This document shows positions 4,678-24,372 of a DNA stretch of 40,475 nucleotides, in pieces. The stretch's first letter is position 1; every line of letters begins with the position of its first letter. This DNA is from a virus (Duplodnaviria > Heunggongvirae > Uroviricota > Caudoviricetes), in the IMG/VR virus record IMGVR_UViG_2660237933_000004; one strand, given 5' to 3'. The notes beneath the pieces were generated by a model. It made no database searches. It was given only the letters and a program-made list of their open reading frames with translations, and was not told where the DNA came from. Position numbers and translations under genes: made by a program.

Positions 4678-5756
4678 CAGAACGGGTCCTCCTGTACTCT
4701 GGCTTTTTTCTTTTTCCGCGCGCCGGGGGCTTCGGGTTCAGGCAGATAAGCATCAGGCGGGCCGACACGGATTTCCGTCAGGGTGCCGTTCTGGTCCTGA
4801 GTAAACGTGACTTCCGAAACAAGCAGTTCGGTATTGTCGAAACCACAGACCGGATCAAAGACAATCACCCGCTGGTTGGGCTGCCACAGCGTACCGTTAC
4901 CCTGTCGCCAGCCCTGCACCACATAGGTGGTTTCATCCGTCCGCGCCGCCCGTTGTCGGGCTTCAAAGTCCGCACGGGCAATACAGCCTGCCCCCGTAGC
5001 CTGCCCTGTCTGCCTGATATACATCGGACGGTAACGGGCAATAAATGCGTCCTCTGTGCGGGCCCGCAGCGCGGTGGTGGTGGCCTCACCGAAATCATCG
5101 TCGTTTCCGGCACGCTGCCCCGCCACCTGGTAAACTGAAAACCGCTCCCGGATACTCTTCTCCGTATCACAGGAAAGGATGTTTTCCCCAAGTACCAGCG
5201 CGGTATGTGCCCGCGTTGAGCCAATACCACCAATCACCAGCCTGCCGTGCGGGTCGTCATAAGCCAGCGCCTGCTGCTGACCGAGTATTTTGTTGATCAC
5301 CTCGATCACCGTTTCACCGTGATCAGGCTGGACATCCGGAATAACACCCGACGGCGCATCGCTGTTCACCACCTCAATGCCGAAAGGCGCAGCAAGCGCC
5401 TGCGCAATCTGTACCAGCGATCGTCCGTTAAACTGTGTCGGTTCGGCTGCACAGTCAATCAGGTCAGCAGTCAGACTACGTCCGGCAATACCGGTGCTGA
5501 CCGAACGGGCATCGTAACGAACGGGGGTCGCCTCCACCCAGCCGGTGATCACCAGCTCATCACCAATCAGCACTTCCACTTTTGAACCATTTTTAATGCG
5601 CGGCTGAAGCGTGGTGATACCCTCATCTCCCGGCCACTGGCGGGTGATCTCCACGCTGAAATCCCGCGCCAGCCGTTCAATACCGGCACCGATGCGCACC
5701 GATGTCCAGCCATTCCACTCCCGGCCATTTACCCGTAGCGTGACGTTATCGTTCAT
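4677..5756 (-). CDS. Tail protein (Mu gpP / late control D-like)
   Basis: 359 aa; position downstream of the DNA circularization-like gene in a Mu-type tail module. Confidence 0.5.
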   Translation of the reverse strand: MNDNVTLRVNGREWNGWTSVRIGAGIERLARDFSVEITRQWPGDEGITTLQPRIKNGSKVEVLIGDELVITGWVEATPVRYDARSVSTGIAGRSLTADLIDCAAEPTQFNGRSLVQIAQALAAPFGIEVVNSDAPSGVIPDVQPDHGETVIEVINKILGQQQALAYDDPHGRLVIGGIGSTRAHTALVLGENILSCDTEKSIRERFSVYQVAGQRAGNDDDFGEATTTALRARTEDAFIARYRPMYIRQTGQATGAGCIARADFEARQRAARTDETTYVVQGWRQGNGTLWQPNQRVIVFDPVCGFDNTELLVSEVTFTQDQNGTLTEIRVGPPDAYLPEPEAPGARKKKKARVQEDPF

Positions 5757-14043: not shown

Positions 14044-15249
14044 TTACGCCGCTGCAATCTTCAGCAGTTTGATGGCCTGCGAATCGACCAGCATCCCGCC
14101 GGTGCGCTTGGTGGTATAAAAACCGACAAACGGTTTATTGGTGTACGGGTCACGCAGAATGCGGGTGCCGATACGGTCAACGATGGTGTAACCCCGTTTG
14201 AAGTTACCAAATGCAATGGCTTTCGCATCAGCGGCGATATCCGGCATCTGTTCGTTTTCAGCGATACCGTAACCCGCCAGAGAGGACGGCTGCCCCAGTT
14301 CCAGCCCCGGACGCCACAGATAGTTACCCTCGCTGTCTTTCAGCAGACGGATGGCAAACAGGCTGTTGTTGTTCATCATGAATTTCGCGCCAGTGCGGTG
14401 TGCCTTACGCAGCGTGTAAATCAGTTTGATAATGGCGTCTGCGGTCACCGCCGTCGCTTCGCCGGATACAATATGCTGAAGTTTGCCGAACGCCCGGACC
14501 TTATCGGTTTCATCGGTGGATTCATACGCCAGGAACCCTTTTGGCTTCTTGGTGCCATCGCCGGAGGTAAAGGCAATTTCTTCCTGTTCGGCAAATTCGG
14601 TTGCCAGCTCGCTGTTGATCCAGGCCTCCACGTTGAAAAAGGCATCGTCCAGCATTTTCTGGGTGGCCTGCGGGTTACCGTAGATTTCCCCCATGAGAGG
14701 TTCAATCAGCTCCAGTCTGGAGGTGGCAGTCTGGGATCGCGTATCCGTTTCCCCCACCCATCCGGAAGCCGTACCGCCCAGATTCACCAGTTTTTTGTAG
14801 TCGGAACCGCCAACGGTGATCACCGTGGCTTCCTGACGCATCACCACTTCATCTTTCAGCAGGTTGAGAATGTTGCGATCCAGTTCTTCCGGCACGGCGT
14901 AGCCACCGTCTTCATCGGTGCCCACCTGCAATGCCTTACGCTCCAGATCGCGCAGACCGTCTTCACGGCCTTTACGCAGAAAACCCACAAACGCCTCTTT
15001 ATGCTCGGTGGCCAGTTTATTTTGCGCACCACCTGCCGGACGTTTCAGCTCAAGCAGCTCTTTTTCAAGGTCGCTTTTGAGATTTTCCAGCTCGCTGAGT
15101 TTTCCGTTCAGGGTTTCCACCTGCCCGGCAAGTTTGCCTTTTTCCTGCTCAATCGCCTCCACGCGCTTATCGTTCTTTGCTTTGAAGTCGTCAAACTTCT
15201 GCTGCAGCTCCTGCGCGACCTGTTCGACATCTTTAATATCTACCGCCAT
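14044..15249 (-). CDS. Major capsid protein, HK97-fold with N-terminal delta (scaffold) domain
   Basis: 401 aa; N-terminal approx 100 aa coiled-coil-like (KLSELENLKSDLEKELLELK); follows the prohead protease gene. Confidence 0.85.
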   Translation of the reverse strand: MAVDIKDVEQVAQELQQKFDDFKAKNDKRVEAIEQEKGKLAGQVETLNGKLSELENLKSDLEKELLELKRPAGGAQNKLATEHKEAFVGFLRKGREDGLRDLERKALQVGTDEDGGYAVPEELDRNILNLLKDEVVMRQEATVITVGGSDYKKLVNLGGTASGWVGETDTRSQTATSRLELIEPLMGEIYGNPQATQKMLDDAFFNVEAWINSELATEFAEQEEIAFTSGDGTKKPKGFLAYESTDETDKVRAFGKLQHIVSGEATAVTADAIIKLIYTLRKAHRTGAKFMMNNNSLFAIRLLKDSEGNYLWRPGLELGQPSSLAGYGIAENEQMPDIAADAKAIAFGNFKRGYTIVDRIGTRILRDPYTNKPFVGFYTTKRTGGMLVDSQAIKLLKIAAA

Positions 15250-17326: not shown

Positions 17327-19060
17327 TTAAAGCGAGCGGATCCCGTAGGACTCAATGTGGTCAGACAGCGTGTCTTCTTTCTCGTACAGCATGGCTCTGC
17401 CAACCGCCATAATCAGCGCAACTGCACCATCGATTTTGTTTTCCGCCTGCTCTTTGACGGGTTTCACCACATCATCGTTACCCGGAATGGTTTTGCCGAC
17501 CACGTTGCCGATACACCAGGTCATGATGGGATTGCCGTCATGATGAAAGCGCCCCGATTCAATTGCCGCTTCCAGCTCTTTCATCGGGTCGGACATGTTG
17601 GTGTAGTTCTGAATGATAGTGATGGGGTTCAGGTCTTCATCAGCAAGGTCATGTGACAACCCGGTCGCCCCGAAGGGGTCGATGGGTGACTCACTGACCG
17701 GGCTGATTTTGTTCGCCGCTTTGGCCTCCTCGAGGATGTAGCGATAATCCACCTCCGCACCATCGGTAACGGTCAGAACGCCCATTTCCACCCATTTCTG
17801 AAAGCGTTCGGCTGTCCGTCGATCTTCATTTTTCTCGACGCTGTACACCGTGTCATACGGTACCCAGAAACGCGGGGCCACACTGTAGTAATGCGTTTTA
17901 CCGTCAATCTCGCGGGTATAAAGTCGCGCCATGCTGTTCATATCCAGCTTACGCGCCAGGTCAAAGGCCAGAATGCACGGCTGCCCCTCGAACTGCTCAA
18001 GAGTCAGTGATTTATCCTCGCATCTCTGCCAGCTCACCAGGTTGAAATACGCCGAACGCGCCGACACCCAGATATTGAGGTGTTTTGTTTTAAAGACGTT
18101 TGCCAGACGGGCGTTATTTTTCGCACGTTGCTGCTGGCTTAACAAAAACTCGCGATAAACCGACACACCGATATTCGGGTTAGCTTTTTCAAGTACCTGC
18201 GGGTCGGTCCAGTCGTCGCCTTCGTCAACGGTATAGATGATCCCGAACAGTTCATCGTTGGGCACCGAGCCGTTGAGCATCTCGATGACTTCCCGCCGTT
18301 TGTCGTAGCACGGCCCCTCAATGTTGTACCCGGCGGTGGTAATGGCCCACATCAGTGGCTGGCGTCGCGCCCCCATCCCGGTAAGCATCGTGGTGTAAAG
18401 CGCATCTGTGGCGTGCTCGTGATATTCATCCACCACCGCACAGTGGGGTGATGAACCATCACCGGGGTTACCGATCAGCGGTTCAAACCGCGCACCATCC
18501 TCCGGACGGTTCATGTTTGAGGCGTTAACCTCAATCCCGAACGCTTCCGTCAGCATGGGTGTGCGTTTACACATCAGTCGTGCCGGACGAAAGACTTCCC
18601 ATGCCTGTTTCTCCGTCGTGGCACCGGAATACACTTCCGCGCCGAACTCGTTATCACAGGCAAAACAATACAGGGCGACACCGGCAGAGATTGCCGATTT
18701 GCCGTTCTTACGGGGGATTTCGGTATACACCTCACGGAAGCGGCGCAGCCGGGAGCCTTTATTGACCCAGCCAAACGCGCAGCAGATCACAAAGAGCTGC
18801 CACGGCTCCAGCGTGATGGGCATCCTCTTAAATGCCCACTCACCCTTGGTGTGCGGCAACAGCTGAATAAATTTCGCGGCCCGTTCAGCCAGGTCCTTGT
18901 CGAAGCGGTAACGAAACGACTTACTTTTTTCCTCCATCAGGTCATCAAGATGGCGCTGGCAGGCCTGAATCACAAACTGGCAGGCCACAATCTTTCCGTG
19001 CACGACATCACGGGCATACTGATTGGCAGCATTTACGTTGGGGTAAGATTTCCGGCTCAT
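17327..19060 (-). CDS. Terminase large subunit
   Basis: 577 aa; overlaps the small subunit gene by 4 nt; size and position typical of HK97-type terminase. Confidence 0.9.
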
Positions 19061-19560
19061 GATTCGATGATTTTCAGAAACGGGTTAGTGGCTTTCTTCT
19101 GCCCCGCCAGGCCAATCAGACGCTGGCGGCTGCTGGGGTCGAGTCCGAGCATTGCCCCCGTACTGCTCATCTCGGACTCCTGTTCTTTTTTGGCGGTCAG
19201 CTCCGGATTTTTGACCATACCGCCCATTGCACCGGTGATGGTGTTGCCCTGTCTGGCAATATTTTTCACGGCACGTCGCCAGAACTCGTAGGCCACGCAC
19301 CACCGCTCAAGCACCGCGAGGTCAGTCACGCACAGCAGGCCCTGACCGCAGAGTTCTTTAGTTGTCAGTTGCCACATGATCGTGGCGAGAGGGAGATCTT
19401 CTTCAGCGAACCACTCCGGTGGCTCAACACCTTTGATGGGCGTAAAAACAGGTTCATCTTTATTCAGGGCTCGCTTGCCGGGGTTTCCGGCCAGCGCCTT
19501 GCGCGCCGTTGGCTTGGGGCGACGCCCGGAACGCCCCGCCGTTCCAGCCATATGCGGCAC
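19057..19560 (-). CDS. Terminase small subunit
   Basis: 167 aa, basic N-terminus; immediately upstream of large terminase and downstream of HNH gene. Confidence 0.65.
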
Positions 19561-19594
19561 TCCTGGTTAAATTTCATTTTTCGCGGGTATAAAA

Positions 19595-19660
19595 AAACGA
19601 TGGGGCGGGCAGTCCGGAAGACGTCAGGCCGCAGGGATTTGACCCGCCCCTCCCCTCAGG
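19595..19660. other. Candidate cos site region
   Basis: GC-rich inverted repeat GGGGCGGG ... CCCGCCCC between the HNH endonuclease and small terminase genes; resembles the GGGCGG start of lambda cosN. Confidence 0.3.
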
Positions 19661-19676
19661 CAGTTGAGAATCATTA

Positions 19677-20027
19677 TCACTTCAACCGTTCACGGGCCGT
19701 CTTCGCCTTATGACACGGCCAGCACAGACTCTGCAGATTACAGTCGGCATCAGTGCCGCCATGCGCTTTAGGGATGATGTGGTCAACAGTTTTCGCCTCA
19801 CGCACCACACCAGCACGCAGACATAGCTGACACAGGACTTTGTCACGCTTCAGGACACGCACGCGGATAACATCCCACTTCGAACCATAACCGCGCTGAT
19901 GACGAGATTGTCCTGGCTTGTATTGCTTCCAGCCTTCGCTTTTATGGCTTTCACAATAGCCTGACGGGTCAGTAGTGGTATTGCGGCAACCGCGAACGCG
20001 GCAGGCTTTTGGTGTTCGTGGCGGCAT
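19677..20027 (-). CDS. HNH endonuclease (terminase-associated)
   Basis: 116 aa; Cys-rich N-terminus and HNH-type motif TVDHIIPKAHGG...N; located just upstream of terminase as in HK97-like phages. Confidence 0.8.
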   Translation of the reverse strand: MPPRTPKACRVRGCRNTTTDPSGYCESHKSEGWKQYKPGQSRHQRGYGSKWDVIRVRVLKRDKVLCQLCLRAGVVREAKTVDHIIPKAHGGTDADCNLQSLCWPCHKAKTARERLK

Positions 20028-20079
20028 ATCTACTCCAATGAAAAAGCCACCGGTTGATAACCGATGGCTTTGATTGTTC

Positions 20080-20451
20080 TTACCTGTTTTGAAGAATCTC
20101 CCGCTTTCTTACAATACATTCCGTCGTTTCTCTATAGCTGCACACGTGCTCCCGTGAACATTGGTATGTGTGCAATTCGCCGATGGCATCACCGATACCA
20201 GTCAGCACATCTTTTTCATGCAGAATGGTCACCTGCAGACGGTTGGTTGGGCAGATAATGTTTGAATAGTTCATTTTGGTGTCTCCTTTGCTTTCGAGAC
20301 ACCAAAATCCCATCACGACACGTTTACCGCCACAAACATTATTGCAGGCACCCATTGAATACCTGCGGGACTGATAAACACAGCCTCCTCCATACGTAGT
20401 GAAACCATTTTCATATCTCCAGTAATGAATTCTTTGAAGAGTCGCAATCAA
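20080..20451 (-). CDS. Hypothetical protein
   Basis: 123 aa ORF; start uncertain (internal Met candidates); no recognisable motif. Confidence 0.3.
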   Translation of the reverse strand: MIATLQRIHYWRYENGFTTYGGGCVYQSRRYSMGACNNVCGGKRVVMGFWCLESKGDTKMNYSNIICPTNRLQVTILHEKDVLTGIGDAIGELHTYQCSREHVCSYRETTECIVRKREILQNR

Positions 20452-20470
20452 TACGACTCACTAATGGGGA
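20448..20470 (+). promoter_or_regulatory. T7 promoter-like sequence
   Basis: ATACGACTCACTA identical to T7 consensus -15..-3, then AT GGGG (consensus TA GGGA). Confidence 0.3.
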
Positions 20471-20505
20471 GGCATGTCCAACGCGTTGGACGAGTTGCCT
20501 ACTTG

Positions 20506-20528
20506 ATTTAGGTGACACTTTAGAAGGA
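20506..20528 (+). promoter_or_regulatory. SP6 promoter-like sequence
   Basis: ATTTAGGTGACACTTTAGAAGGA versus SP6 consensus ATTTAGGTGACACTATAGAAGAG (20 of 23). Confidence 0.3.
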
Positions 20529-20574
20529 CAGAATGCCTTCCTCACTCAAATAACATCAATTAAGGAGGTTCAAC

Positions 20575-20697
20575 ATGCTTCGTTCCAAAAGTCAGTTGAC
20601 TGTAATTATTACTACGTCACCTTATGCCGAAGACCTTTTCCGCTTCACTTTGAGCCTGATTCACTTCTACCTGACCGGCTCGCCTCTATCTTTTTAA
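20575..20697 (+). CDS. Hypothetical 40-aa ORF with consensus Shine-Dalgarno
   Basis: TAAGGAGGT 5 nt upstream of ATG; ORF MLRSKSQLTVIITTSPYAEDLFRFTLSLIHFYLTGSPLSF; below ORF-track cutoff. Confidence 0.2.
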   Translation: MLRSKSQLTVIITTSPYAEDLFRFTLSLIHFYLTGSPLSF

Positions 20698-20877
20698 TCC
20701 CCGCTTTATCCAAATTGCATTGCCAGAATGCCGACAACAGACTGACATTCAAATCCTGACTACCTCCAATAGTCTGACCGTACACCTATATAGTTTTAAA
20801 TTTCATCAATCCATTTAACTATCGTTTAATTGTTGTCACATAGGATTCTGCCGTTTTTAACAATGCAGGATAATAAG

Positions 20878-21171
20878 ATGAAAAAAATGTTGTTTTCTGC
20901 CGCTCTGGCAATGCTTATTACAGGATGTGCTCAACAGACGTTTACTGTTGGAAACAAACCGACAGCAGTAACACCAAAGGAAACCATCACCCATCATTTC
21001 TTCGTTTCGGGAATTGGACAGGAGAAAACTGTTGATGCAGCCAAAATTTGTGGCGGCGCAGAAAATGTTGTTAAAACAGAAACCCAGCAAACATTCGTAA
21101 ATGGATTGCTCGGTTTTATTACTTTAGGCATTTATACTCCGCTGGAAGCGCGTGTGTATTGCTCACAATAA
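20878..21171 (+). CDS. bor: Bor lipoprotein (serum resistance, lysogenic conversion)
   Basis: Near-identical to lambda Bor from memory, including lipobox LITGC; opposite strand to the lysis genes as in lambda. Confidence 0.85.
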   Translation: MKKMLFSAALAMLITGCAQQTFTVGNKPTAVTPKETITHHFFVSGIGQEKTVDAAKICGGAENVVKTETQQTFVNGLLGFITLGIYTPLEARVYCSQ

Positions 21172-21202
21172 TTGCATGAGTTGCCCATCGATATGGGCAG
21201 CT

Positions 21203-21664
21203 CTATCTGCACTGCTCATTAATATACTTCTGGGTTCCTTCCAGTTGTTTTTGCATAGTGATCAGCCTCTCTCTGAGGGTGAAATAATCCCGTTCAGCGG
21301 TGTCTGCCAGTCGGGGGGAGGCTGCATTATCCACGCCGGAGGCGGTGGTGGCTTCACGCACTGACTGACAGACTGCTTTGATGTGCAACCGACGACGACC
21401 AGCGGCAACATCATCACGCAGAGCATCATTTTCAGCTTTCGCATCAGCTAACTCCTTCGTGTATTTTGCATCGAGCGCAGCAACATCACGCTGGCGCACC
21501 TGCATGTCAGTAATTGTCGAGTTCGCCAGCTTCAGTTCTCTGGCATTTTTGTCGCGCTGGGCTTTGTAGGTAATGGCGTTATCGCGGTAATGATTAACAG
21601 CCCATGACAGGCAGACGATGATGCAGATAACCAGAGCGGAGATAATCGCGGTTACTCTGCTCAT
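21203..21664 (-). CDS. Rz: Rz i-spanin
   Basis: 153 aa with N-terminal TM helix; follows endolysin; contains embedded Rz1 ORF. Confidence 0.8.
21262..21444 (-). CDS. Rz1: Rz1 o-spanin lipoprotein
   Basis: 60 aa embedded in Rz in the +1 frame; lipobox VVGC and proline-rich [13 protein letters not shown] as in lambda Rz1. Confidence 0.8.
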
Positions 21665-22137
21665 ACCTCAATCTCTCTGACCGTTCCGCCTGCTTCTTTG
21701 AATTTTGCAATCAGGCTGTCAGCCTTATGCTCGAACTGACCATAACCAGCACCCGGCAGTGAAGCCCAGATATTGCTGCAACGGTCAATTGCCTGACGAA
21801 TATCACCGCGATCAATCATCGGTAAAGCGCCACGCTCCTTAATCTGCTGCAATGCCACAGCGTCCTGGCTTTTCGGAGAGAAGTCTTTCAGAGCAAGCTG
21901 CTTACGGTAAGCATCCCACCAGCGTGAAAGAAGCTGATAACGTCCGGCGGCTGTTGATTTAAGTTTCGGGTTTAGCGTGACAAGTTTGCGAGGATGATCG
22001 GAGTAATCAGTAAACAGTTCACCACCAACAATAACATCATAACCGTGGTTACGTGTCGGTTGTCGCCCGTTATCCGTTCCTTCTGACCACGCCAACATAT
22101 CGAGGAAAGCTTTACGCTGAGGATTAAGATTTTGCAT
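21661..22137 (-). CDS. R: Endolysin (lambda R-type lytic transglycosylase)
   Basis: 158 aa, near-identical to lambda R from residue 6 onward. Confidence 0.9.
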
Positions 22138-22441
22138 TTTTCACCCCTGTCAGTCGTTCCCAGAAGTACGTCAGTGCAACCGAACCCATCGCACCACTAA
22201 TCCCCGCTGTCGCGAGAATCATGTAAATACTGAATCCACTTTCGATACTGATCAGGCCACCAATAACACCGGTGAATCCCGATACCACTATCTGAGCCAG
22301 AGCATTTATCCAACTCCACGTTGCTTTACTCTGCTTCACATCTATCAGGTAGCGGACCAGACCGCCCCAACCTGCGATGATCAGCAAAACGAGCCAGAAC
22401 GCTCCGGCAAGGCTCTCTTTTTCGTGCATATGAATAGCCAA
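22124..22441 (-). CDS. Holin
   Basis: 105 aa with about three hydrophobic helices and charged C-terminus; overlaps the endolysin start. Confidence 0.55.
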   Translation of the reverse strand: MAIHMHEKESLAGAFWLVLLIIAGWGGLVRYLIDVKQSKATWSWINALAQIVVSGFTGVIGGLISIESGFSIYMILATAGISGAMGSVALTYFWERLTGVKNAKS

Positions 22442-22657: not shown

Positions 22658-23461
22658 ATGACAGAAAAAGATAACATTGGTAAGTTAATTTGGCATATTG
22701 CTTGCGATGAATCTGGCATTGATGGACAACGTTTCTACGGCTTTGGCAGTCTGTGGATGAAGTACCAACGCCGTGGGGATTTCTGTCAACTAATCAGAGA
22801 ACTACGCGGAAAACATGGTTTTTTTGAAGAAATAAAATGGCAAAAAGCCCATTCAAAAAGATACTCTGAATTTTATCTTGAGCTGATCGACTTATTCTTT
22901 AGAGTTCCTTGGCTAGCTTTTCATTGTATCGTGGTTGAAAAATCAATAGTAAATAAGGCATTTCATAATGGAGATTATGACCTGGCAAGGAGAAAGCACT
23001 TCACAAATCTCATTACCACAAAAATTAGCTCTGTAATTTCTGCACACCCTGAAAGAGACAGTTACTTCAGGATTGAAGTTGATCCTATCGCATCTCGTTA
23101 TAAAAAGGCTGATGAAGAACTAAATGTTATTGCCAATAACATATTGAATAGAAAATTTGGTCGTAAAGGGATAATCAGCAGTGTAGTGACAAAAGACTCT
23201 AAAGCATCTGAAAACATTCAGCTAGCCGATTTTTTCTTAGGTGCGGTTATGTGCGCATATCAAGGAAAAGCTTCATCTGAAGCCAAAATAAGAGTATCAA
23301 ACTATGTTGCTTCATATTTAGGCTGGGATCACTTGCAATATGATACATGGCACACTGAGAGAAAATTTAATATCTGGTATTTTTATGATAAAACTCGAGG
23401 GCCACGAGATATAGAAACTCAAAATGTTAGCTTGAAGTATCCACTTCCCAAAAAGAAATAG
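22658..23461 (+). CDS. DUF3800-like protein (function unknown), opposite-strand moron between Q and holin
   Basis: 267 aa; N-terminal DESG and C-terminal QLAD motifs as I recall for DUF3800; AT-rich; AT-rich upstream region. Confidence 0.6.
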   Translation: MTEKDNIGKLIWHIACDESGIDGQRFYGFGSLWMKYQRRGDFCQLIRELRGKHGFFEEIKWQKAHSKRYSEFYLELIDLFFRVPWLAFHCIVVEKSIVNKAFHNGDYDLARRKHFTNLITTKISSVISAHPERDSYFRIEVDPIASRYKKADEELNVIANNILNRKFGRKGIISSVVTKDSKASENIQLADFFLGAVMCAYQGKASSEAKIRVSNYVASYLGWDHLQYDTWHTERKFNIWYFYDKTRGPRDIETQNVSLKYPLPKKK

Positions 23462-23682: not shown

Positions 23683-24372
23683 TTAATCCAGTTTTGCAAT
23701 ACTTTGCTGTGAAAATGTGGTCTTTTGTTTTGAACGTGTTCTCGTTACAAGCAATAAAGCTTCGCTATCAAGCTGTAGAAAAATGTGCTTCATTGCAACC
23801 CAGCGTTCAGTGAATGTCTCAGACCAGTTTTTTGATGTCACTCCCACCAGTGATGCCAGTTCCCGGTATTCATAAGTCTCACGCCCAGCCAGCTCGCTCT
23901 TCACATCCTGTGCTGCCAGCCAGATCAACTTCTTTAAGCGTTCCAGTGTCTTACTGGCAATTTTTCTTGTACCTAACAGAGCCTTAAACTCGTTCCATGC
24001 CCACTGCGTTATGGCAACCTGATGCTCCCAGCGAACACTTTCGCTGTAACTCCACAGCAACCACGCTTTCTGATGTTCATCGAGAGACAGAACCGCGCGG
24101 CGCCATGACGAGGTTGAGAACTCAACCTGGCTGACCAGTGCAATGGATGAACCTTTTGCGTACGACTGCTTACCGGAAATCGGCGGATTATCCAGCGTAA
24201 TCATCCTGCCAGTTACCTCATCCAGAATGCGCGGCTTCTTTCGTTTGTATGTACCAGTATCAAATTGTGCATGCTCCAGACAGGCTTCAAGCTGGCCTTT
24301 CGTTGCTCCGCTCAAATCAGCGGTAGCCACAATGAGTTGCTCGCGGACATACTGTAAATATTGGGTATTCAT
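23683..24372 (-). CDS. Putative late-gene antiterminator (Q-like), by position
   Basis: 229 aa ORF immediately after rusA/ylcG and before the lysis cassette; not lambda Q-like in sequence. Confidence 0.4.
   Translation of the reverse strand: MNTQYLQYVREQLIVATADLSGATKGQLEACLEHAQFDTGTYKRKKPRILDEVTGRMITLDNPPISGKQSYAKGSSIALVSQVEFSTSSWRRAVLSLDEHQKAWLLWSYSESVRWEHQVAITQWAWNEFKALLGTRKIASKTLERLKKLIWLAAQDVKSELAGRETYEYRELASLVGVTSKNWSETFTERWVAMKHIFLQLDSEALLLVTRTRSKQKTTFSQQSIAKLD

Follow-up and report, generated by a model that had tools for sequence, protein, structure and literature searches.

Tandem predicted promoters for T7-group RNA polymerases ahead of a conserved small gene: a natural cassette of lambdoid prophages that may be read by infecting podophages

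Why should a lambdoid prophage carry, close together and pointing the same way, sequences resembling the promoters of two distinct single-subunit phage RNA polymerases? The question is raised by a short segment of a Caudoviricetes record of IMG/VR (IMGVR_UViG_2660237933_000004), whose whole stretch of 40,475 nucleotides (nt) was analysed and is called the window here. The first-pass annotation, made from the letters alone, had noticed a T7-like promoter core, an SP6-like promoter, a palindrome between them and, downstream, a ribosome-binding site and a small open reading frame (ORF), and it had offered three origins for the arrangement: a chance resemblance, a vector-derived or engineered insertion, or an assembly contaminant. 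The likeness to a pGEM-type polylinker is easily seen, as a T7-like core, an SP6-like core and the 13-mer CCAACGCGTTGGA are common to both. The data presented below show that the segment is a natural cassette and not vector contamination. Judged by matrix score and specificity, its two promoter-like elements, named E1 and E2, are most probably promoters of T7-group single-subunit RNA polymerases. As for the function of the cassette, we cautiously lean towards a trap that would be activated by the polymerase of an infecting podophage, the small peptide then aborting or excluding the infection.

E1 (−17 to +6, positions 20449-20471, + strand, predicted start G20466) is a Berlinvirus-type promoter. 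An exact match to the T7 core is present as reported, and extends over 14 nt (AATACGACTCACTA, 20450-20463) rather than 13; the full 23-nt T7 consensus, sought with up to three mismatches, was unmatched. This failure is explained by the Berlinvirus consensus: E1 differs from T7 at −2 and −1 because both bases are those of the Berlinvirus promoters, whose consensus (ending ..CACTAATGGGAGA; TAATACGACTCACTAATGGGAGA when derived from the promoters that we extracted from PhiV-1) it fits rather than that of T7. In a short-window BLAST covering 50,697 phage records, 27 of 28 bases of E1 were identical to promoters of BP12A, S523, PhiV-1 and CarlSpitteler, genomes that each carry 9-11 sites of this type. 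On a matrix built from PhiV-1, E1 scores 37.6 bits, PhiV-1's own promoters ranging from 21.7 to 41.7 bits with a median of 36.0; on the T7 matrix it scores 29.9 bits. The E1 alleles of related cassettes score 28-39 bits.

E2 (−17 to +6, 20506-20528, + strand, predicted start G20523) is of the Zindervirus/SP6 type. The SP6 likeness described earlier holds, the match being 20 of 21 positions (ATTTAGGTGACACTtTAGAAG, 20506-20526), and none of 100 shuffles of the window yielded an SP6 match. E2 agrees at 31 of 32 bases with a promoter of the Zindervirus UAB_Phi78, a genome with four such sites, and the similarity to podophage DNA stops at about −21 and +10 of the promoter. Its score on the UAB_Phi78 matrix is 30.7 bits (17.6-38.3 bits for the promoters of that phage), and the alleles of relatives score 22-36 bits. 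The allele of the window is shared in type with Shigella phage SfIV and is that of SP6/UAB_Phi78. The commonest E. coli allele is a different one, GATTTACTGGACACTATAGAAGGA, which is the promoter of K1E/K1-5 (Vectrevirus): it is 96% identical over 28-29 nt to sites present in 6-9 copies per Vectrevirus genome and scores 35.9 bits on the K1E matrix, on which K1E's own promoters score 34-42 bits. Variation among the E2 alleles clusters at −12 to −10, where the Vectrevirus and Zindervirus promoter sets differ. As had been noted from the letters, E1 and E2 are co-oriented, both lying on the + strand with their predicted starts 57 nt apart (20466 and 20523).

These scores are specific to the cassette. 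On either strand of the 40-kb window the next best site stays below 15 bits, and E1 and E2 fall within the ranges of the phages' own promoters; the chance resemblance considered at the outset was therefore rejected. Both strands of 122 prophage loci (1.13 Mb) were scored, and hits of at least 22 bits were confined to the cassette, except one in locus L118, an unrelated 53-kb contig (IMG/VR 3300033434_000393) that had itself been fetched by a promoter pattern. On that contig an isolated SP6/K1E-like promoter, TCAAGCTTTACTTGACACTATAGAAGCG, lies at about 5196-5214, outside recognised cassettes, and scores 28.9 bits on the K1E matrix.

We then turn to where the segment occurs. Of 5426 complete E. 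coli genomes, 631 contain the 321-bp segment, with identities of 80-100%, and their sources include chicken, baboon, deer, swan, human and wastewater; nine of the 631 are identical to the window, and the identical matches are chicken isolates. SfIV carries it as well (96.5% identity), as do five records of E. coli phages. In the record of Escherichia phage vB_EcoS-813R8 (ON470619.1) it lies at 14565-14885, with 87.8% identity. In the four loci for which the annotation was read, it occupies the same place, with the end of the lysis cassette (or bor/iss) on one side and the HNH and terminase genes on the other. With an anchor placed outside the promoter cores, 46 distinct variants were gathered from IMG/VR. 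One-genome-per-species reference scans, run with GGACAGAATGCCTTCNTCACTC and with a pattern from the lysC 3' end, returned nothing, and the species range rests on E. coli/Shigella and Klebsiella.

The Klebsiella versions were reached by tblastn with the small peptide: temperate phages of this genus carry different promoters in the equivalent slot. One of them, ATTAGTGGCGAGTATAGAAGAGG, matches the 11-copy consensus AATAGTGGCGAGTATAGAAGAGG of the podophage FBKp16 (Autographiviridae, Molineuxvirinae) and scores 37.5 bits on the FBKp16 matrix, where that phage's own promoters span 31.4-39.8 bits. One of the Klebsiella loci has, in addition, a K11-like promoter that scores 28.6 bits on the K11 matrix, slightly below the range of K11 itself (31.0-42.6 bits). 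The first position of the array varies among the Klebsiella cassettes, with T7-like, K11-like and other versions; all their promoters lie on one strand, and two are supported by position weight matrices. At least four promoter classes thus occupy one slot, with a constant strand and matched to the host genus. Kp4856-1, one of the Klebsiella phages, has a perfect 8-bp hairpin from the +1 position of its promoter onward, and behind it AAAGGAGG and an ATG. In six loci (L119, L122-L124, L126 and L128), the stretch that separates the identified promoters from the ribosome-binding site, some 100-200 nt ahead of the small ORF, holds additional conserved promoter-like repeats, TTTAATGTTACACGAGTAGGAACAG and AAGTTACACAATAGAAA, which matched no known phage promoter class.

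Both predicted transcripts begin with a hairpin that would stabilise them. Hairpin 1 (20466-20504, + strand) starts at +1 of the E1 transcript, and its tip is formed by the 14-bp palindrome TCCAACGCGTTGGA (20477-20490), the MluI palindrome of the first-pass annotation. The predicted fold energy is −15.1 kcal/mol in the window and −18.3 kcal/mol (z = −4.1) in the commonest variant. In an alignment of 13 distinct variants, 95.4% of the cells are paired, a value that none of 500 shuffles and no slid register came near, and in two neighbouring pairs both partners change (C-G to U-A, and A-U to C-G). On RNA of the − strand the figure drops to 82.1%, since the stem contains three G-U pairs. The stem GTCCAAC..GTTGGAC is common to hairpin 1 and the Klebsiella cassettes. 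Hairpin 2 (GAAGG-ACAGAATG-CCTTC, 20523-20540, + strand) forms the 5' end of the E2 transcript; in the predicted fold it has 5 bp and leaves the ribosome-binding site unpaired. It is weak when taken alone (z about 0), and it is nearly invariant among relatives, but the search anchor included part of it. A comparable layout is known from T7 late mRNAs, in which a 5' stem-loop and a strong ribosome-binding site follow the promoter.

The strong ribosome-binding site and the 40-codon ORF were borne out as well. The Shine-Dalgarno sequence TAAGGAGGT (20561-20569, + strand) stands 5 nt upstream of the ATG of the small ORF (20575-20697, + strand), which encodes MLRSKSQLTVIITTSPYAEDLFRFTLSLIHFYLTGSPLSF. 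AAGGAGG or AAGGAAG followed by ATG is retained in all 46 variants, the anchor having excluded the Shine-Dalgarno sequence, and in all 46 the ORF is intact and exactly 40 codons long. Equivalent Shine-Dalgarno sites are found in the Klebsiella cassettes, whose small ORFs encode unrelated and more hydrophobic peptides of 37-38 amino acids (aa) that end, like the E. coli versions, in a C-terminal PLSF. In codons 24-40, variant codons are synonymous in eight cases and non-synonymous in three when read in the ORF frame, the ratios in the other frames being 2:9 and 3:9. The end of the ORF is overlapped in antisense by the 3'-end remnant of a LysC/Rz1-like o-spanin gene (20645-20785, − strand); this antisense frame cannot explain the synonymous excess, because by coordinate arithmetic the third codon positions of the ORF fall on second positions of the lysC frame. 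Over codons 2-23 (20578-20643), two deeply different haplotypes stand beside an almost invariant C-terminal half. The best 19-residue hydropathy value is 0.90 for the peptide of the window, 1.40 for the commonest E. coli allele, and 1.83 and 1.41 for two Klebsiella peptides. A search of 5.8 billion proteins with the peptide returned only close, unnamed E. coli relatives; comparison with PHROGs and PADLOC gave no meaningful match to a known family or toxin family, and tblastn against phages found no podophage homologue of the ORF. None of these searches turned up a homologue beyond the cassettes.

How might these parts work together? In the trap that we propose, the cassette would be silent in the lysogen, because the prophage has no cognate polymerase and the region has no sigma-70-like site: no ORF of the window is large enough for a T7-type polymerase gene (the largest encode 610 and 577 aa), and a scan of 20000-21300 detected no sigma-70-like promoter, nor an intrinsic terminator at either hairpin (20466-20504 or 20523-20540). 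On the simplest reading it would respond to no polymerase but one of the T7 group, an enzyme that an infecting podophage alone brings into the cell. After infection by a T7-like or SP6-like phage, the freshly synthesised polymerase of the invader would read E1 or E2 rightward from G20466 or G20523. The transcript would then be translated into the small peptide, as the conservation of the ORF suggests, and the peptide may damage the cell or the invader, so that the infection aborts and neighbouring lysogens are spared; of the four steps this last is the least certain. The observations on which the model draws are the identity of the promoters, the match of alleles to hosts, the hairpin on the + strand, and the ribosome-binding site and ORF that are kept throughout. 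The alleles carry promoters of the podophages of their hosts, and during evolution the array seems to change by swapping of promoter specificity. Two other uses of podophage promoters were considered and rejected: mimicry of a T7 replication origin or packaging site, as the segment has no terminal-repeat or AT-rich origin features and two specificities would be pointless for it, and titration of the polymerase, as the promoters are present in single copy only.

Several observations weigh against the trap. In codons 1-23 only two variant codons are synonymous and 28 are non-synonymous, which suggests that the N-terminal half of the ORF is either under diversifying selection or free of coding constraint; the codon counts given here for both halves are per site and do not represent independent evolutionary events. 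The E. coli peptides are moderately hydrophobic (grand average of hydropathy 0.45-0.67), and a role as membrane toxin is not obvious from this. A single chromosomal copy would need to act before the invader degrades the host DNA. The E2 of the window has a T at −3, where the consensus is A. Finally, two minor E2 alleles, beginning ATTTAATGGACAC and ATTTACTTGACAC, matched no repeated promoter in IMG/VR, the scan returning only prophage cassettes and isolated single hits in three other contigs.

A more specific form of the proposal is also possible, and we advance it more tentatively. Here temperate phages of enterobacteria would keep a fast-evolving array of decoy promoters for the polymerases of the virulent T7/SP6-like phages of their host, a booby trap without a sensor protein in which the polymerase of the invader triggers a toxic peptide with a diversifying N-terminus. 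The promoter specificity of such an array would track the local podophages, and the trap would be immune to host transcription shut-off.

Could the prophage instead borrow the polymerase of the invader for genes of its own, in the manner of a satellite? The promoters look real and point rightward, and the first gene that they meet beyond the cassette on the same strand is the bor/iss lipoprotein gene (20878-21171, + strand; Pfam Lambda_Bor, E = 6e-31); in the E. coli type that is commonest, too, the cassette is followed by iss. Some 2 kb further along, still on this strand, lies a gene for a 267-aa DUF3800 protein (22658-23461; Pfam E = 2e-10), which is a PADLOC defence candidate (PDC-M04A, E = 1.4e-34). 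The predicted transcripts of the window would continue into bor and, beyond it, cross the lysis genes in antisense on their way to the DUF3800 gene. However, bor/iss is present in some versions of the locus only: it is missing in SfIV, in the relative L001 and in all Klebsiella versions, and yet the small ORF is present throughout. The small ORF is the common denominator of the cassette versions, because bor is missing in many of them. Moreover, transcription from these promoters heads in the direction opposite to the packaging and structural genes and reads the lysis genes in antisense, and it would give the prophage no help in escaping from a cell that a T7-like phage overtakes within minutes. 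We regard this hijacking of the polymerase as unlikely.

The trap must also be weighed against the possibility that the promoters are an inert relic, copied from podophage DNA by past recombination and functionless. The abrupt end of the podophage homology, at about −21 to +10 of the promoter, is what such copying could leave behind, and the two minor alleles that have no known phage match fit it too. Yet few columns of the alignment are as conserved as those of the promoter cores, whereas the stretch from the ribosome-binding site to the C-terminal half of the ORF varies freely. That at least four promoter classes share slot and strand and fit the host genus also speaks against a relic, as do the compensatory changes in hairpin 1 and the intact ribosome-binding site and ORF of all variants. 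These features make an inert relic very unlikely.

A further alternative places the function on the opposite strand. The segment, flanked within the late operon by the lysis genes and the HNH gene, could be a cis-acting RNA element of the minus-strand late mRNA, for example in processing or translation of the HNH/terminase message, its likeness to promoters being incidental. The upper stem of hairpin 1 forms on that strand too (82% of cells paired), and the complement of the E1 start, GCCUCCCCAU, could, as read from the sequence, pair with an HNH-type ribosome-binding sequence at 20383-20393. But in minus-strand RNA the lower stem has A-C mismatches in place of three G-U pairs, an Rfam scan gave no match to the element (19500-21500, E up to 10; hits only at E 0.3-8, far below the gathering scores), and this alternative leaves the promoter matches of 27/28 and 31/32 bases and the host-linked swapping of promoter classes unexplained. 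We hold it to be highly improbable.

That the segment is a remnant of a cloning vector, an engineered insert or an assembly contaminant has practically no probability left, because it occurs in 631 natural E. coli genomes and in phages that include SfIV, in a lambdoid position that is constant in the four annotated loci, flanked by phage genes; its 46 natural variants, the divergent Klebsiella versions and the covarying palindrome, found in Klebsiella phages as well, are natural alleles without a vector backbone, E1 has the Berlinvirus consensus and not the T7 consensus of vectors, and its promoters are co-oriented, unlike those of pGEM-type vectors, in which the T7 and SP6 promoters converge on the polylinker.

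Is the cassette, as a natural element, of a new kind? Chen and Schneider are said to have described prophage-like islands of 4-13 kb that lack a polymerase gene and carry two to three T7-like promoters within a few hundred bases, and reportedly discussed them as relying on the polymerase of a T7-like phage. The cassette shares with those regions at least two tandem, co-oriented promoters of the T7 group in prophage-like DNA that has no matching polymerase. Their paper reports regions or islands of enterobacterial genomes that bear tandem T7-like promoters (Chen and Schneider, Nucleic Acids Res 2006, 34:1133), and the cassette is thus a natural member of the tandem T7-group promoter regions of enterobacterial prophages, a kind already described. 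A review ties these islands to the sit locus. The cassette differs here, as no sit locus was seen in the window. A 50-kb region of strain CFT073, reportedly a sit carrier, contains a lambda-type prophage with iss, but neither such promoters nor sit genes. What may be added by the present analysis, some overlap with the 2006 paper being possible, is the matching to podophage genera, the swapping of alleles in step with the host, seen across E. coli/Shigella and Klebsiella, the covarying 5' hairpin and the conserved small gene. The searchable literature contained no description of a natural defence triggered by an invader's polymerase, and no experimental follow-up of the tandem T7-like promoter islands since 2006.

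Comparison with better-known systems helps to place the cassette. From about −20 to +10 it is nearly identical to the promoters of Autographiviridae (the phi17-type promoters of PhiV-1/BP12A, and those of SP6/UAB_Phi78 and K1E/K1-5), and as in those phages the start is a G that is followed by a 5' hairpin and a strong ribosome-binding site. In contrast to the 10-17 copies in podophages, it is present once, in a prophage of temperate siphovirus or myovirus type; the homology is confined to the promoter, and the cassette pairs two polymerase specificities, which no single podophage needs. There are also engineered precedents, namely a phage-inducible promoter joined to a lethal gene in Lactococcus and the pET vectors, which are induced by T7 polymerase. 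The logic proposed here would be the same, silence until the machinery of the invader arrives, with a T7-style promoter, a 5' hairpin and a Shine-Dalgarno sequence; these constructs are man-made, however, whereas the cassette is natural, widespread and diversified, with a product whose toxicity is putative. Like the morons of lambdoid phages (bor is an example), the cassette is a small transcription unit of its own set among late genes, where morons usually sit, beside bor, and like type I toxins its product is short and partly hydrophobic. It differs from both in having neither a sigma-70 promoter nor an intrinsic terminator and in encoding a peptide that belongs to no known toxin family, and from type I toxin systems in that no antitoxin RNA was identified for it.

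If the trap model is right, the cassette would be a defence that senses the enemy simply through a DNA sequence, which the enemy's polymerase reads. T7-like phages shut off host transcription, and a trap run by the polymerase of the invader would escape this shut-off. A few base changes would suffice to re-aim its specificity, and the alleles show that pattern. About one in nine sequenced E. coli strains would then carry a predictor of sensitivity to T7-, K1E- and SP6-like therapeutic phages. Even if the model fails, the perfect look-alikes of T7 and SP6 promoters in assemblies of wild E. coli are explained, and a vector-contamination flag on such sequences is unwarranted.

The genes around the cassette belong to a lambdoid late region transcribed from the minus strand, and the lambdoid prophage context claimed from the letters is confirmed by the Q, holin, Rz, Bor, HNH and terminase genes. 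On this strand are found the genes for the Q antiterminator (23683-24372), holin (22124-22441), lysin (21661-22137), Rz with an embedded Rz1 (21203-21664; a functional pair separate from the lysC remnant), HNH endonuclease (19677-20027), the P27-type small terminase (19057-19560) and the large terminase (17327-19060). The DUF3800/PDC-M04A gene, which shares the strand of the cassette promoters and follows them at a distance of about 2 kb, lies between Q and holin, in a moron slot that is occupied in L001 by a KAP-family NTPase. Relatives without bor have an intact lysC that ends at the equivalent of window position 20645. The lysC remnant of the window resembles a recombination scar, bor and a different spanin module standing in place of the original lysis end.

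Between the cassette and the HNH gene lies a 64-aa ORF (20080-20274, − strand; phrog_31491, function unknown), which is inserted here and missing in SfIV. A terminator-like hairpin on the − strand, with a 10-bp stem and a T-rich tail (20344-20366), separates this ORF from the cassette. Inverted repeats are formed by GCCTCCTCCAT (20383-20393) and ATGGGGAGGC (20465-20474), and base pairing between the complement of the E1 start and the HNH ribosome-binding site with its start codon is conceivable on the minus-strand late mRNA of relatives. This repeat may be incidental, as the start regions of T7-type promoters look like Shine-Dalgarno sequences. A further hairpin (20278-20303), with a perfect 8-bp stem (GGTGTCTC..GAGACACC), buries the ribosome-binding site AAAGGAGACACC of the phrog_31491 ORF, which suggests that this 64-aa ORF is under translational control.

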